DNA of 64,000 nt from Escherichia coli (GTDB lineage: Bacteria; Pseudomonadota; Gammaproteobacteria; Enterobacterales; Enterobacteriaceae), in assembly GCF_050920415.1 (NCBI RefSeq), contig NZ_CP169309.1. One strand, written 5' to 3'. Within the stretch, counting starts at the first letter, position 1; each line of letters begins with the position of its first letter. This document shows, in pieces, positions 20,516 through 24,178 of the stretch. The notes below the pieces were generated by a model. That model was not told the origin of the DNA and searched no databases. It worked only from the letters and a program-made list of their open reading frames with translations. Position numbers and translations under genes: made by a program.

Positions 20516-21781
20516 TTAAATTGTTCCATGATCTAGTTTTTTATTCCACAGATGTTTGAAGATATCTAATGTAGAAACGACATTCGCAGGAGACATTCGG
20601 TTCAATGATATAAGGAAAGGATGGTTCTCCACAAAGTGGATAAAACACGTCGCACTGTTCAAAGTTGCATGCCGCATCTCGCGGACTTTCTTACTGCCAG
20701 TGAGATTGCATACAGCCATTGAATAATTGCGGTTAGAAAATGCACGCCAGACATTGTTTCGTACCCCACCACTAAGGAATAATCGCGGTGGAAAATCAAT
20801 GCTGGCAGGTGCCACACCGCGCTCTTTGACAAAGGAAATATGGCAGCGACCTTGATGAATATGCTGCAAATAAGCCATCAGGCATCCGCCCAATATAAAG
20901 CATTCGTGATCAAGGTAATGCTGAACGTTAATGGAATGTTCATCGGTCAGTATTCTGACCAGTTCAAAATGACGATATGCAGGAAGAACCGGCTTCACCA
21001 GCATTCCCGGATCGTTTTGATGTAAAACTGCCGGGCCGTAATCAATATCAAACAAGGTATCCCGCCGCATAGTGAGTAACTCTTTGCGTTGGACATGATG
21101 TGCCAGCGTCCCTGGAGGCATACGCTCTTCATAGCTCGATGTGTATTGATAATGTTGCTCTACGGCAGATGGGGAGTAATTGGTTGAGATGGCAACCACC
21201 CTGCCGCTTTGTTCTTCTGCGGTAACAAGAGCATAAAGAGAGTTATTGCTACCATTATACTTGACGCGAAAAGCACGGGTACTCAGGGTAATATCAGAAG
21301 CAGGCAAACACTGTCGACTTTCTTTATAGTTTGCTCCACGCGCTAATTTTAACAGTTCTCGGCTAAGTCCAGTGCTGTTAAGAAGTAATGACTTTCTGAT
21401 ATCCGCAAGTGCCTCCCCTTGCTCAATCATCAATGCTAACTGGGCTCCTCGTGGTGTGGTAATTACATGTTCCAGAGTGATAAATGTTTTCTCACAATGA
21501 TGGCAATACATTCTTCTCTGGCCTTGTGCAGAATATCCATATTTTTTGAGAGACGTACTTCCGCAAGTTGAACATTGGCAAATCAAACCTCTCCAGGAGT
21601 GATTCACAATATTACGATAAATATTAAGCGACTGTTCAGATATCACTGGAAACAAGTAACCACATTCACGGCATAAAATATTTTTACCCTGTGCGACATA
21701 ATCCTGGCTATTCAGCAACCCCAGGTTTTTACATCCTGGTGTTTTGCAACAATCAACATTTACGTTGGTAAACATATCCAC
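20516..21781 (-). CDS. Cys-rich 421-aa protein with two N-terminal zinc-ribbon motifs (transposase-type ribbon); function unknown
   Basis: N-terminal 100 aa hold 10 Cys in CxxC-type pairs; the second ribbon CSTCGS...RRMYCHHCEKTF resembles IS1/IS1595-type transposase zinc ribbons; no radical-SAM CxxxCxxC motif; AT-rich; last gene of a same-strand block with the sulfatase. Absent from K-12 at this position. Confidence 0.5.
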   Translation of the reverse strand: MDMFTNVNVDCCKTPGCKNLGLLNSQDYVAQGKNILCRECGYLFPVISEQSLNIYRNIVNHSWRGLICQCSTCGSTSLKKYGYSAQGQRRMYCHHCEKTFITLEHVITTPRGAQLALMIEQGEALADIRKSLLLNSTGLSRELLKLARGANYKESRQCLPASDITLSTRAFRVKYNGSNNSLYALVTAEEQSGRVVAISTNYSPSAVEQHYQYTSSYEERMPPGTLAHHVQRKELLTMRRDTLFDIDYGPAVLHQNDPGMLVKPVLPAYRHFELVRILTDEHSINVQHYLDHECFILGGCLMAYLQHIHQGRCHISFVKERGVAPASIDFPPRLFLSGGVRNNVWRAFSNRNYSMAVCNLTGSKKVREMRHATLNSATCFIHFVENHPFLISLNRMSPANVVSTLDIFKHLWNKKLDHGTI

Positions 21782-21903
21782 TCCCTGCGAATAGCCGTAT
21801 CTTGATATTGTTCAACGCGAAAAGAACCTGATTCAATGCATAGCACTGAATCAGGCGGGCATAGCCCTAAATGGCATACATTACATTTATTATAATTATC
21901 AGG

Positions 21904-23397
21904 TTAGCCCCAGGTCACTGCTTCTGGTTTATCACCTCTGGCTTTCATTAGAGAATCATTATCAATATCACTTTTATATTTTAAAAACTTACCATACATC
22001 TGTTTTTCAATATCTGGTTTTTTACCGATCAGATTAAGTGTTTCAAAACGATCAGATTTAAGATTATAGAGATATTTCGGTTTATTATTGCGATCGATAA
22101 TCATCTTCCAGTCACCATCACAGATCGCCCATTCATCGGTTGGATCATCCTGGAATGGCATATCAATCCCGAAAATTAATGGCTTTTCGCGTTTCAATGC
22201 TTTTTGCTCAAGAACAGGAACCAACGATTCGCCATCAAAAGTGCGGTCCGTCGGTAATTTGAAGTTCATCATTTTCGCCAGCGTAGGCATCCAGTCCAGA
22301 CCATAAACGGGAGTATCTGAAACCATTCCCTTTGGAAGATGCTTTCCGTATTTAATAATCGCCGGAACACGGATGCCGCCTTCCCAAAGATTATCCTTGC
22401 GACCACGTAATCCATCAGTTTCCCCTGCCAAATTCAGTTCATAAACTTTACGTGCTTCACGGGTTACTGGGCCGTTATCACTGGTAAAAATAACGATGGT
22501 GTTATCTTCTTCACCCATCGCTTTGATTTTATCCAGTACTTTTCCAACCTGAGCATCCAGATAACTGATGTTGGCATAATATTCCCCCACACCACGCCAG
22601 GGTTTATCCGCCCAGTCGCCATAAAATAAATCAGGATGCTGCTTCTGATACGCGCTCATATATTGTGAGTACATGTCGAGGTATTTTTTGGGCGAAGCCA
22701 GGGGGCTATGCACTTCGGTAAAAGCGACATAAAGGAAGAAAGGCTTACTATCCTTTTTGTTATCCAACCAGTTAACGACTTCCGAACTGACATACTCACC
22801 ACTCATTTTATCGGCACGAGGTGTGGGTTGCCCGTTACGCAACCAACCCGTCGGATACACCATGCCAAAACGGGGACGCTCCTTCGCATTATCCAGAGTA
22901 GCGTCGGTAACAAAACCCGCCGTATTAACCAGTGAGTAATCAAAGCCCATATCTTTTGCCTGAGGCTGATCGGTACGATCGCCGCCTGCATTCAGATGCA
23001 GCTTACCCATCATTGCCGTGTCGTACCCTTGCGCTTTGAGTAGATTAGCAATCGTGAGTTCATTACGCCCTAATGCCACATCTTTTCCCGTTGGTATCCA
23101 TGAACGTATGCCGGTACGAAATGGCATCCGCCCCGTTAATAACCCCGCTCGCGAAGGAGAACTTAAGGGAGCTGGGGCATAGTAGTCAGTAAATTTGACG
23201 CCCTCCTGGGCAAGCCTGTCAATATTGGGGGTTTTAACGATCTGATGACCATATGTTGCTAAATCGCCATAACCTAAATCATCCGCCATAATAATGACTA
23301 AATTAGGTTGTTTAACCTCTGCGGCTAAGGCAGGACTAAAAGCATTCCCTGTGCAAACTGCAAGGCCGATCAAACTGGCCATTAACGTTTTCTGCAT
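21904..23397 (-). CDS. periplasmic Ser-type sulfatase (arylsulfatase family)
   Basis: 497 aa with a signal peptide (MQKTLMASLIGLAVCTGNAFSPALA), the MADDLGYGD metal-binding start and the sulfatase signature SSPSRAGLLTGR carrying Ser in place of the modified Cys. Confidence 0.85.
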   Translation of the reverse strand: MQKTLMASLIGLAVCTGNAFSPALAAEVKQPNLVIIMADDLGYGDLATYGHQIVKTPNIDRLAQEGVKFTDYYAPAPLSSPSRAGLLTGRMPFRTGIRSWIPTGKDVALGRNELTIANLLKAQGYDTAMMGKLHLNAGGDRTDQPQAKDMGFDYSLVNTAGFVTDATLDNAKERPRFGMVYPTGWLRNGQPTPRADKMSGEYVSSEVVNWLDNKKDSKPFFLYVAFTEVHSPLASPKKYLDMYSQYMSAYQKQHPDLFYGDWADKPWRGVGEYYANISYLDAQVGKVLDKIKAMGEEDNTIVIFTSDNGPVTREARKVYELNLAGETDGLRGRKDNLWEGGIRVPAIIKYGKHLPKGMVSDTPVYGLDWMPTLAKMMNFKLPTDRTFDGESLVPVLEQKALKREKPLIFGIDMPFQDDPTDEWAICDGDWKMIIDRNNKPKYLYNLKSDRFETLNLIGKKPDIEKQMYGKFLKYKSDIDNDSLMKARGDKPEAVTWG

Positions 23398-23417
23398 AAT
23401 TATTCCCTGATAAAAAA

Positions 23418-24178
23418 TTAGAAATCATAACCAAGCATATAAATCATTTGATCGCCAAAGCCATCGTAGCCCAGCTTATTATCGAAATAACGCCACGTCA
23501 CACTGGCTTTCCAGCGAGGATAGAACTTCCAGGCAATAGTTAAACCGCCATTTAACCCGTTCCGACCAAATTGCTGCTCCGTGTAAGCATCGTTCCTATC
23601 CAGTTCTATTTCATTCCAGTTAGATAAAACAAATTTTTCGTCAAATAACATAAATGGCAATACTGCTGTCCAGCCAACAACATAACCATTCCAACCATTC
23701 GTTTGACCATATTTAGCTGATACGTAGTCACCAGATTGATTATGTAATCCAATATACGGTTTACCCCCCCCCATGAACCATTCCAGCCGAGGTAGCCCAA
23801 ACCATAAAACATATCAAGATCGTCACCCCATGAGTTATCCCATTGACCATAGATCTTGCCAAAGAAAGTCATATCAGAGTCAAAGAGTCTGACATGCGTC
23901 ATTGCTGAAACTGTATGATTTCTCCCTGCTACAGCATGATTGAGTACATTACTTTCATAAAATGAGTAAAATTCTGCTTCTTTAAAATTTACCCCAAAAT
24001 CCGCAGTCACTTTCCATACTTCACCACGGTGAGTGTTTACAAATCCACTATTCCAGTCTGCATAACCCGCATTTATTGAACCAAAGGTTCCTTTATATTC
24101 TAATGAAGAATATGCAGGAAAATGATAGATAGCTGTTATCAGGGTACACGCAATAAGAAGTCGTCTTTTGGCAGACAT
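23418..24178 (-). pseudogene. Tsx/OmpK-family-like outer-membrane beta-barrel protein, frame interrupted at a homopolymer tract
   Basis: N-terminal ORF (24178-23606, signal peptide MSAKRRLLIACTLITAIYHFPAYS) and C-terminal ORF (23774-23418, ending GYDF with aromatic-rich strands) are offset by one base exactly within a 9-nt C/G run; one extra G would fuse them as ...WNGSWGGGKPYIG... Confidence 0.6.
23764..23772. repeat. homopolymeric tract (C9 on plus, G9 on the coding strand) inside the Tsx-like gene
   Basis: Read directly: ttaCCCCCCCCCatgaacc. Confidence 0.9.

Follow-up and report, generated by a model that had tools for sequence, protein, structure and literature searches.

Gene content and organization of the block

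The window analyzed here (the whole 64,000-nucleotide stretch of E. coli DNA) carries, between nhaA and sokC/hokC, three minus-strand genes that encode a channel, a sulfatase and a zinc-ribbon protein, in this order. The open reading frame listing places these genes at 23418-24178, 21904-23397 and 20516-21781, respectively, with 20 bp between the channel and sulfatase genes and, depending on the start codon of the zinc-ribbon gene, 122 bp (GTG) or 128 bp (ATG) between the sulfatase and zinc-ribbon genes; the ATG start, at 21775, is favored by the homologues and by RefSeq. The features discussed below are as follows.

20516 to 21775, minus strand: zinc-ribbon protein, of 419 aa if started at the ATG and 421 aa if started at the GTG at 21781
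20526 to 24525, no strand assigned: segment of about 4.0 kb missing from K-12-type E. coli, which have 72 nt of unrelated sequence instead
21776 to 21825, minus strand: junction of the lost anSME gene, where about 1.2 kb of the Salmonella/Klebsiella sequence is missing
21826 to 21856, minus strand: conserved intrinsic-terminator hairpin found by scanning, with a stem of 13-14 bp and then TCTTTT, just downstream of the sulfatase stop codon
21904 to 23397, minus strand: sulfatase of the S1 (formylglycine-type) class, 497 aa, periplasmic, its Sec-type signal peptide ending ALA|AE
23161 to 23163, minus strand: codon 79, AGT (Ser), the formylglycine position by alignment, in the motif L-S-S-P-S-R
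23418 to 24178, minus strand: Tsx/OmpK-family outer-membrane channel gene, frameshifted here (intact alleles encode 253 aa)
23764 to 23772, minus strand: poly-G tract, G9 in the gene (C9 on the plus strand), replacing an ancestral TTTTTT that encodes F-F
24291 to 24306, minus strand: operator-like palindrome about 115 nt upstream of the channel start, conserved across genera

The G+C content of the zinc-ribbon, sulfatase and channel genes (0.43, 0.45 and 0.40) and of the two intergenic regions that flank the block (0.36 and 0.31) compares with 0.51 for nhaA, 0.56 for dnaJ and 0.50 for the window as a whole. Together with the reading frames, these values bear out the first-pass annotation, which had described three minus-strand genes with short gaps in an AT-rich block between nhaA and hokC. 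RefSeq annotates the same three genes in a single identical genome and marks the channel gene as "frameshifted". A literature search found no publications on these three genes and no experiments tying any of them to a substrate.

The comparison with other genera revealed that the unit normally has four genes. That is, Salmonella, Citrobacter, Klebsiella, Kosakonia and Phytobacter carry, between dnaJ and nhaA, genes for the channel, the sulfatase, an anaerobic-type sulfatase maturase (anSME) and the zinc-ribbon protein, and relatives whose zinc-ribbon proteins are only 33-43% identical carry this four-gene set elsewhere in the chromosome. Among 21 species-level loci recovered via the zinc-ribbon protein, other-site copies included, the sulfatase or its maturase lies directly upstream of the zinc-ribbon gene in every case (21/21; one locus is cut inside the maturase, so that its sulfatase is not visible). 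This bears out the part of the earlier proposal in which the genes act as one unit; the unit is conserved, and at its center are a periplasmic sulfatase and an outer-membrane channel.

A Ser-type sulfatase that has lost its maturase

The sulfatase matches the Pfam Sulfatase model (PF00884, E=4e-59; alkaline-phosphatase-like domain) and is 97-98% identical over residues 6-497 to PDB 3ED4, with Ser at the formylglycine position in both. Its sequence S79-S-P-S-R-A-G-L-L-T-G satisfies the signature (C/S)-x-P-x-R-xxx-(L/M)-T-G, and its metal- and sulfate-binding residues are conserved (D39, D40, R83, K132, H134, H230, D307 and N308). In the alignment, residue 79 is Ser in all seven Escherichia copies and Cys in all 19 others, with the codon being AGT in all Escherichia copies vs. 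TGT or TGC in the non-Escherichia orthologues, and besides this change only one other fixed change occurs at the 258 positions that are otherwise invariant. Versions with the alternative residue at position 79 were absent from a collection of 15 billion proteins, in which the natural alleles occur on at least 1000 contigs.

The Salmonella anSME scores 534 bits against TIGR03942 (cut-off 349); no anSME gene of the block was found in the window, in any Escherichia locus or in the E. coli genomes searched (0/5426). The last ~20 nt of the junction (ATTCGCAGGGAGTGGAT) include the ribosome-binding site from which the zinc-ribbon gene is translated; their counterpart in Salmonella is the 3' end of the anSME reading frame, and both this ribosome-binding site and the terminator have been retained at the Escherichia deletion. 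These comparisons show that the anSME gene was cleanly deleted, and the Cys79 codon changed to Ser (TGT to AGT), before the split between E. coli, E. albertii and E. whittamii. It is important to note that four other lineages have lost anSME and kept Cys, so that a causal link between the two changes seen in Escherichia is not required.

The dN/dS ratio of the sulfatase within Escherichia (0.02-0.06) equals that of the Cys-type orthologues (0.02-0.04) and of nhaA. Purifying selection of this strength, together with the conservation of all other catalytic residues, indicates that the Ser-type sulfatase is still functional. Ser-type sulfatases are thought to be strictly dependent on AtsB-like enzymes, and Cys-type sulfatases in E. 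coli are served by an unidentified system. The core paralogue AslB is 45-49% identical to the lost anSME, its gene was found in 5412 of the 5426 E. coli genomes, and its own client, AslA, has a near-identical Ser-type motif (S-S-P-T-R). Most likely, then, the sulfatase would be matured in trans by AslB, under anaerobic conditions. A point against this step is that laboratory studies introduce Cys-to-Ser changes precisely in order to block formylglycine formation in E. coli (PMC6189696).

Alternatively, the Escherichia protein might no longer be a formylglycine enzyme, and might act as a weak or re-specialized hydrolase that uses unmodified Ser79 as its nucleophile, similar to alkaline phosphatase, or simply as a sulfate-ester-binding protein. 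The loss of the cognate maturase and the replacement of Cys are in line with this alternative, and purifying selection would fit any retained function. Further, Cys-to-Ser mutants and unmodified sulfatases keep multiple-turnover activity, with kcat values 5- to 2500-fold lower (PMC6189696), while the 3ED4 active site has been described together with mutant enzymes that have no sulfate-metal contact (PMC9063841). However, the complete motif and the full set of metal- and sulfate-binding residues are conserved, natural Ser-type sulfatases are normal clients of anSME enzymes, and AslB is kept in E. coli alongside the Ser-type AslA. Accordingly weighed, loss of formylglycine chemistry appears unlikely to us, although it is the strongest of the alternatives considered here.

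Transcription signals and the zinc-ribbon protein

In other genera, the terminator hairpin falls between the sulfatase and anSME genes, and its stem shows compensatory changes in 9 of 13 pairs. With this conserved terminator separating the sulfatase and zinc-ribbon genes, a single three-gene transcript is doubtful. Transcription would instead run from the channel into the sulfatase gene and mostly end at the terminator, and the zinc-ribbon gene may be expressed by read-through or from a weak promoter of its own. Upstream of the channel gene, the invariant columns of the alignment cluster in the palindrome (consensus TGTGATATCTCTATCACA; CTGCGATCTTCATCAC in the window), which is a candidate operator.

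The zinc-ribbon protein consists of two Cys4 zinc ribbons, a helix-turn-helix and an RNase-H-like transposase fold that lacks the DDE triad. The IS1/IS1595 zinc-binding domain is located at aa 70-101, the N-terminal InsA/IS1595-type ribbon is recognized by NF050000 (30.4 bits; cut-off 28), and PF03811 matches 7 of 39 family members at E<=0.001. Across 38 near-full-length homologues, position 293 alone is always acidic, and no conserved Asp was found in strand 1 or after strand 4; the absence of the triad was judged from the alignment and predicted secondary structure rather than from structural superposition. None of the insertion-sequence traits sought (terminal inverted repeats, several copies, variable location) was found, the position of the gene inside the operon is fixed across genera, and dN/dS is 0.085-0.17 in all but one pair. 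The protein is an exapted IS1-like transposase, not a mobile element. Databases label members of the family either "IS1 family transposase" or "cytoplasmic protein".

Several distant homologues are encoded divergently from, or beside, nucleoside and nucleotide scavenging genes, an arrangement typical of a local regulator, which suggests that the protein probably binds DNA and regulates the unit. Less in keeping with an essential regulator are the split of the protein in some strains (L044-L047) and one paralogue without the helix-turn-helix segment. It could also be hypothesized that the protein is an accessory factor for sulfatase maturation or export (e.g., holding the unfolded precursor for anSME), since it is Cys-rich and cytoplasmic, and its gene is always found 22-34 bp downstream of anSME wherever the latter is present. 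We give little credence to this hypothesis, as the gene is kept in lineages that lost anSME, its fold, with a helix-turn-helix, is of the transposase type, and the distant relatives beside nucleoside/nucleotide genes have no sulfatase nearby.

The channel gene and its G tract

The channel gene is split in the window into reading frames of 190 and 118 aa. The intact allele L002 matches Pfam Channel_Tsx (PF03502, E=2.8e-13), and the family assignment is further based on a signal peptide and a C-terminal Phe (...GYDF). The poly-G tract sets the frame: G10 is in frame (WGGGKP), whereas G9 and G8 are out of frame. With nine residues where ten are needed, the channel is OFF in this strain. The first-pass annotation had pointed to this homopolymer as a possible switch, and its length does vary among near-identical strains, with an in-frame version occurring in nature as an exact 253-aa product (G10). 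Specifically, G8, G9 and G10 are found in blocks only 0-2 SNPs apart over 4.4 kb (relative to the window, L001 has G8 with 0 mismatches and L043 has G10 with 2 mismatches), G10 is also kept in a second haplotype that is 97% identical, and the exact products of the three lengths were found on 2 (G8), 55 (G9) and 6 (G10) contigs; homopolymer lengths are prone to sequencing error, and individual assemblies may carry such errors. A frame-setting homopolymer inside a reading frame and length polymorphism among near-identical isolates, with relatives only 0-2 SNPs away carrying G8 or G10, fit a slipped-strand on/off switch of the channel. The FF-to-GG replacement sits in a motif conserved in all genera, and thus even the "ON" allele may be impaired.

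A less constructive reading of the same data is that the block is merely decaying in Escherichia and that the G tract is a fixed pseudogene lesion and no switch. Several observations point in this direction: the maturase is gone, the block has disappeared altogether from ~77% of the E. coli genomes, the strains mentioned above have a split zinc-ribbon gene, OFF (G9) is the prevailing tract state, and the channel gene has been knocked out on several separate occasions (by T6-to-T5 changes in E. coli lineages and in the type strain of E. albertii, by a stop at E135, and by other frameshifts). Yet the low dN/dS of the sulfatase and that of the intact channel alleles (0.03-0.06) hold across deep Escherichia divergence (dS up to 1.0), and three tract lengths in almost identical blocks, with G10 recurring in the second haplotype, speak against a fixed lesion. 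Hence, simple decay seems distinctly improbable.

Distribution and origin of the block

The block is present at >=80% coverage in 1271 of 5426 complete E. coli genomes. Genome comparison confirmed the earlier statement that it is missing from K-12-type strains, where the final ~10 nt of the zinc-ribbon reading frame remain as a deletion scar. The block occupies the dnaJ-nhaA site in at least six other enterobacterial genera (Kluyvera included, in addition to the five named above), no flanking repeats, integrase or other mobility genes were found around it, and no true plasmid or phage copies turned up, the matches being mislabeled chromosomes or chromids. The same site across genera, the lack of repeats, integrase and mobile copies, and the deletion scar lead to the conclusion that the block reflects ancestral presence with lineage-specific loss and no recent import. 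The orthologous blocks are also low in G+C, which is a property of the locus. Among E. coli alleles, synonymous divergence is very high and allele classes are shared with the cryptic Escherichia clades, indicating recombination at the locus.

The block had been described as horizontally acquired, and a recent accessory island for the uptake and desulfation of a sulfated substrate would agree with its G+C below that of the flanking genes, its patchy occurrence in E. coli and the signs of recombination, but this description did not survive the comparison with other genera, the K-12 scar, the missing repeats and mobile copies, and the low G+C of the orthologues, which leave it very improbable.

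A model for the function of the unit

We favor the hypothesis that an old Enterobacteriaceae operon, dedicated to the desulfation of a small sulfated compound in the periplasm, survives in Escherichia in the modified form of this block, and we regard this as reasonably probable as an explanation of the whole. Under this hypothesis, the substrate would enter through the outer-membrane channel, of the Tsx/OmpK type and 12-strand class, and would be desulfated by the Sec-exported, formylglycine-dependent sulfatase. In the full unit, anSME, a cytoplasmic radical-SAM/SPASM enzyme, would make the catalytic formylglycine before export, and the product of the fourth gene, the cytoplasmic zinc-ribbon protein, would serve as DNA-binding regulator of the unit. 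In Escherichia, with anSME deleted and Cys79 replaced by Ser, AslB would mature the sulfatase in trans under anaerobic conditions, and the G tract would toggle the channel and possibly, through polarity, the sulfatase as well. Our best guess for the substrate is small host-derived aryl or steroid sulfate conjugates.

Exapted-transposase relatives of the zinc-ribbon protein across Enterobacterales and Vibrionaceae adjoin UshA-like 5'-nucleotidases, NupC/NupG-type transporters and Deo enzymes, and this proximity to genes for the scavenging of nucleotides and nucleosides would suggest a sulfated nucleoside-/nucleotide-like or small aromatic substrate. A more specific version of the model combines such a substrate with "swapped maturases" (that is, a Ser-type AslB client active only anaerobically, where AslB is expressed), a hitherto unrecognized family of exapted-transposase regulators and a G-tract-gated channel; that all of these elements hold jointly is a tentative proposal, and rather doubtful. 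The four-gene composition of the unit, the loss of the maturase, Ser at residue 79, the terminator and the transposase-derived fold are all new relative to the first-pass annotation.

Comparison with known systems

The Klebsiella atsBA, E. coli aslB/aslA and ydeM/ydeN pairs place a periplasmic S1 sulfatase (C/S-x-P-x-R) beside a radical-SAM/SPASM maturase, and the orthologous Salmonella, Klebsiella and Citrobacter loci show the same sulfatase-maturase arrangement as ats/asl. Unlike these pairs, the Escherichia block has had its maturase deleted and its nucleophile precursor changed from Cys to Ser. To our knowledge, the classical ats and asl pairs include neither a Tsx-family channel nor a transposase-derived protein. 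PDB 3ED4 ("putative arylsulfatase from E. coli", NYSGXRC) is the same protein, an unpublished structural-genomics entry that provides the structure only. A natural, strongly conserved Ser-type sulfatase without its own maturase and with a crystal structure in hand lends itself readily to testing whether AslB or YdeM can act in trans as maturase, or whether catalysis can be formylglycine-free. The block is found in about one in four E. coli genomes and across the whole of Salmonella, Klebsiella and Citrobacter, and its substrate could matter for gut colonization.

The zinc-ribbon protein shares with the IS1 InsAB' and IS1595 transposases the order of N-terminal Cys4 ribbon, helix-turn-helix and RNase-H-like core, but differs from them in having an extra N-terminal zinc ribbon, no DDE triad and no terminal inverted repeats, and in being single-copy, syntenic and under constraint (dN/dS ~0.1). 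It defines an uncharacterized transposase-derived family and, if it is indeed a regulator, would add a bacterial example of transposase domestication.

The tract described here, 8-10 G inside the reading frame of an outer-membrane protein, with lengths that differ between near-identical isolates and one length in frame, resembles the slipped-strand homopolymer phase variation of surface proteins in Neisseria, Haemophilus and Campylobacter. In contrast to these, it is confined to one allele lineage and is predominantly in the OFF state. We are not aware of slipped-strand homopolymer phase variation as a feature of E. coli, or of a description of a G-tract channel switch in this species; reports of such switches in E. 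coli are rare, and the tract is a candidate for one.

Finally, Tsx (a nucleoside channel and the receptor for phage T6 and colicin K) and Vibrio OmpK (the receptor for phage KVP40) share with the channel the Channel_Tsx family, a length of ~250 aa and a C-terminal aromatic residue. Compared to Tsx and OmpK, only the C-terminal ~150 aa of the channel match the Pfam model, and the channel scores below the cut-off of the NCBIfam equivalog PRK11528 (119 vs. 282 bits); it is also co-encoded with a sulfatase and not with nucleoside genes. The name given to the channel in RefSeq is OmpK.

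Locus layout and conservation at the nhaA-sokC interval

The window carries the E. coli chromosome in reverse, in the order nhaR, nhaA, the three-gene block, sokC/mokC/hokC, dnaJ and dnaK, and the first-pass annotation of a three-gene, minus-strand, AT-rich block between nhaA and hokC proved correct in every detail (ORFs, gaps, G+C content and profile matches). The relevant features are:

19114-20280, minus strand, nhaA (ORF and annotation)
20516-21775, minus strand, zinc-ribbon protein, 419 aa from the ATG (homologues begin MF..NV; RefSeq start identical)
21856-21826, hairpin with a 13-14 bp stem followed by TCTTTT, directly past the sulfatase stop
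21904-23397, minus strand, sulfatase, 497 aa
23418-24178, minus strand, Tsx/OmpK-family outer-membrane channel, broken here into 190-aa and 118-aa ORFs
24306-24291, minus strand, palindrome upstream of the channel, conserved across genera, consensus TGTGATATCTCTATCACA
24644-24796, sok (sokC), Rfam match

Channel and sulfatase genes are 20 bp apart, and sulfatase and zinc-ribbon genes 122-128 bp. G+C content is 0.40-0.45 in the block genes, 0.31-0.36 in the flanking spacers and 0.51-0.56 in nhaA, dnaJ and dnaK. The sulfatase gene product matches Pfam Sulfatase (E=4e-59), the intact channel allele matches Pfam Channel_Tsx (E=2.8e-13), and residues 70-101 of the zinc-ribbon protein, for which Pfam returned no domain, correspond to the IS1/IS1595 zinc-binding domain. 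Rfam recognized sokC alone in the region and no family for the conserved intergenic element. Strain MFDS1022581 is the sole complete genome at least 99% identical to the block, and RefSeq likewise annotates three genes there, with the channel marked as frameshifted.

The locus is not unknown, since its genes are annotated and one structure, PDB 3ED4 (an E. coli sulfatase 97-98% identical to this one), has been solved. Our literature searches found no study of the sulfatase locus; STM0035 is mentioned once, in a genomics paper on an unrelated matter, and papers cite 3ED4 solely as a molecular-replacement model. As far as we found, the literature does not describe the Escherichia-specific pairing of a lost maturase with a strongly constrained Cys79Ser sulfatase, the transposase-derived partner protein and its tie to nucleotide-scavenging genes, the covarying terminator, or the polymorphic G tract.

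An ancestral four-gene unit at the same chromosomal site

Zinc-ribbon homologues at 54-85% identity were found in Enterobacteriaceae only. The cross-genus loci were collected by a profile search with 13 closer zinc-ribbon sequences, which biases them toward this family. At the dnaJ-nhaA site, Salmonella, Citrobacter, the K. pneumoniae group, Kosakonia, Phytobacter and metagenomic relatives carry four genes, encoding the channel, the sulfatase, a radical-SAM/SPASM protein and the zinc-ribbon protein. The radical-SAM protein, with 534 bits against TIGR03942 (cut-off 349), is a bona fide anaerobic sulfatase maturase (anSME). The channel gene is inverted and paired with a UshA-like 5'-nucleotidase in most loci of Salmonella and Citrobacter, where two AssT-type arylsulfotransferase genes lie on the flanks of the unit. 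Where the zinc-ribbon protein is only 33-43% identical, the same four genes are found, with their order kept, at unrelated chromosomal sites (Buttiauxella, Franconibacter, and second copies in C. freundii and C. amalonaticus), which is strong evidence for a functional unit. The earlier proposal of a functional unit is supported in part, by this shared gene order. The second C. amalonaticus copy (locus L034, 5262-6763) has its sulfatase in two pieces and a truncated channel, an example of decay of the module where it is redundant.

This conservation across genera and sites disfavors the recent horizontal acquisition proposed for E. coli. The block borders show no flanking repeats and no mobility genes, and the plasmid and phage matches of the block are mislabelled chromosomes or chromids. 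The close (≥80% identity) E. coli matches listed from PLSDB are 0.8-4.9 Mb long and thus represent chromosomes, or large pieces of them, deposited as plasmids. Several of the matching "phage" records are chromosome contigs of Salmonella or E. coli, and tallies based on such collections should be used with caution. The absence of the block from K-12 was confirmed, and the empty site is a deletion scar between nhaA and sokC: on the nhaA side 246 bp are left, which take in ~10 nt from the end of the zinc-ribbon ORF, followed by 72 unrelated nt (no match to anything in the block) and then the 234 bp adjoining sokC. The suggested comparison across E. coli and Salmonella finds the block in 1271 of 5426 complete E. 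coli genomes (≥80% coverage) and the four-gene form at the same site in Salmonella.

Maturase loss and a constrained serine-type sulfatase

All Escherichia loci examined (three E. coli allele classes, E. albertii, E. whittamii and one cryptic-clade strain) are without the maturase gene. Two stretches of the gap are conserved between Escherichia and other genera, ~85 nt directly past the sulfatase stop and ~20 nt directly ahead of the zinc-ribbon start; in Salmonella the latter stretch is the 3' terminus of the anSME ORF. Between these conserved ends no anSME ORF is left in Escherichia, and no remnant was found in any anSME-less gap. None of the 5426 complete E. coli genomes has the anSME gene, the sole similarity being its paralogue aslB (5412/5426). 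The gene is also missing in K. oxytoca, K. spallanzanii, Phytobacter massiliensis and Kluyvera intermedia, which keep Cys79. Because the gene is absent in these four further lineages, with sulfatase/zinc-ribbon gaps (171-329 bp) unlike one another in sequence, local maturase loss has evidently been repeated, independent and tolerated.

Residue 79, the formylglycine position of the sulfatase, is Ser (AGT) in 7/7 Escherichia copies and Cys (TGT/TGC) in 19/19 others. The 19 non-Escherichia enzymes share 258 invariant positions; at these the only fixed Escherichia differences are C79S and G193P, and the canonical metal- and sulfate-binding residues are unchanged. Residue-swapped versions of four Escherichia, one Salmonella and one Klebsiella sulfatase were all absent from a collection of 15 billion proteins. 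Of the natural alleles looked up there as controls, the two from E. coli and the one from Salmonella each had 1000 contigs or more, and the Klebsiella allele had 570. For the sulfatase, pairwise comparisons among Escherichia copies give a dN/dS (Nei-Gojobori) of 0.02-0.06, with dS reaching 1.0; this is indistinguishable from that of the Cys-type orthologues (0.02-0.04) and of nhaA, which argues that the Escherichia gene is not decaying. The corresponding values are 0.03-0.06 for the channel and 0.085-0.17 for the zinc-ribbon protein, save one low-divergence pair at 0.29.

Most simply, the sulfatase would be matured in trans, ahead of Sec export, by AslB or another anSME paralogue. AslB is 45-49% identical to the lost maturase, and its divergently encoded partner sulfatase, AslA, is itself Ser-type, with the motif S-S-P-T-R-A-T-I-L-T-G (S-S-P-S-R-A-G-L-L-T-G in the window sulfatase). 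Alternatively, the enzyme may keep Ser79 unmodified, with reduced or altered activity, since laboratory Cys-to-Ser mutants in which formylglycine formation is blocked in E. coli still turn over, with a 5- to 2500-fold lower kcat (PMC6189696), and the 3ED4 active site has been discussed together with such mutants (PMC9063841). A role of the zinc-ribbon protein itself as a maturase was rejected, as it has no radical-SAM motif or profile match and has the fold of a transposase. As for the substrate, the nearest characterized relatives (E ~1e-50) are steryl sulfatase, GalNAc-6-sulfatases and carrageenan sulfatases; the AssT neighbors in Salmonella suggest small phenolic sulfate esters as candidates.

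A transposase-derived zinc-ribbon protein

Eight cysteines (C12, C17, C37 and C40, and C70, C73, C93 and C96) are invariant, or nearly so, among 39 aligned homologues and make up two Cys4 ribbons, the second of InsA/IS1595 type. The sole family-wide acidic position is E293; therefore, the DDE triad is absent. Relatives in AFDB, spread over Enterobacterales and Vibrionaceae, are labelled "IS1 family transposase" or "cytoplasmic protein". Because the gene is single-copy, holds a fixed operon position and is under purifying selection, the protein is an exapted transposase and not an insertion sequence.

Among distant relatives, all four informative gene contexts involve nucleoside or nucleotide scavenging: (i) deoB, a purine-nucleoside phosphorylase and a nucleoside symporter; (ii) a NupC-type transporter; (iii) a relative flanked to one side by a porin, an AphA-like phosphatase and a class II cyclic-nucleotide phosphodiesterase and to the opposite side by an MFS transporter and a deoB fragment; and (iv) a 25% identical paralogue between metL and metF, divergent from a UshA-like 5'-nucleotidase and present in 1181/5426 E. 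coli genomes. The 5'-nucleotidase of the last context is 51% identical to that of the Salmonella sulfatase locus. For one further homologue (P0069), the 2.9-kb contig offers no informative neighbor. These adjoining and, in several cases, divergent arrangements fit a putative role of the zinc-ribbon protein as a local DNA-binding regulator. In E. coli strain 118UI the metF-metL islet spans 4516-7332 of locus L050, and its 376-aa paralogue is without the helix-turn-helix segment.

The zinc-ribbon gene (position ~20516-21775 in the window) is broken into 201-aa and 179-aa ORFs in four loci of one haplotype (L044-L047), 97% identical to the window, in which the locus is 40 bp shorter and the nhaA-proximal 0.9 kb is just 81% identical to the window.

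Transcription signals

The hairpin directly past the sulfatase stop is kept in 13 loci from at least eight genera, with compensatory changes in 9 of 13 stem pairs. It very probably acts as an intrinsic terminator or attenuator, dividing channel and sulfatase from the (anSME and) zinc-ribbon gene. Its position makes a single transcript spanning all three genes doubtful. A promoter scan of the region gave fewer sites than the shuffled control. The palindrome upstream of the channel is a candidate operator; its half-sites resemble CRP sites, yet their spacing is 8 nt. It is one of two blocks in this spacer (24291-24306 and ~24337-24354, both minus strand) conserved from Escherichia to Kosakonia and Phytobacter.

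G-tract variation in the channel gene

Intact channel alleles read TGG GGN TTT TTT AAA (WGFFKP), which is kept in all genera. In the allele lineage of the window the T6 run has been replaced, giving TGG GGG GGG GGT AAA at G10. The window has G9, the otherwise identical locus L001 has G8, and L043, with 2 SNPs in 4.4 kb, has the in-frame G10, which also occurs in L044-L047 (97.4% identical to the window). Exact look-ups of the products found G9 on 55 contigs (including E. coli M863 and 1.2741), G8 on 2 and in-frame G10 on 6; the G7, G11, G12 and G13 products were absent. Length variation of this kind is the pattern that slipped-strand switching leaves in a population. Sequencing error was dismissed as the whole explanation, given G9 on 55 contigs and G10 on two distinct haplotypes. 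The homopolymer switch proposed for this gene is supported in part, with G8, G9 and G10 in near-identical blocks and G10 in frame; as caveats, the OFF state predominates (G9 on 55 contigs vs. G10 on 6), and the replacement of FF by GG may impair the channel protein. The channel has also been inactivated independently elsewhere, by T6 to T5 (E. coli and the E. albertii type strain), by a stop at E135 and by further frameshifts, a pattern that either decay or repeated selection against a surface receptor could produce.

Two other homopolymers were seen. A T8 run (A8 on the gene strand) at 24507-24514, in the AT-rich spacer ~330 nt upstream of the channel start, shows no sign of function. The sole further G/C homopolymer of at least 8 nt in the 64-kb window is a C8 at 14019-14026, just upstream of a fimbrial operon (genes ~14300-18100) between nhaR and the remaining chromosome; in the annotation of the identical genome the chaperone of this operon is frameshifted and the usher truncated.

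Allele divergence at the locus

Across 19114-23397 of the window, compared with four other loci (L002, L003, L016 and L018), dS between E. coli alleles is 0.24-0.37 in nhaA, 0.3-0.64 in the sulfatase gene and up to 1.0 in the zinc-ribbon gene; in dnaJ, a few kb away, it is merely 0.05-0.07. The allele classes also occur in cryptic clades, with L003 resembling Escherichia sp. MOD1-EC7003, and the window and L002 resembling E. whittamii. The block is also mosaic internally, as the window and L002 differ by a dS of 0.36 in the sulfatase gene and 0.07 in the zinc-ribbon gene. Taken together, the high dS, the shared allele classes and the mosaic pattern point to inter-clade recombination or long-lived polymorphism at this locus.
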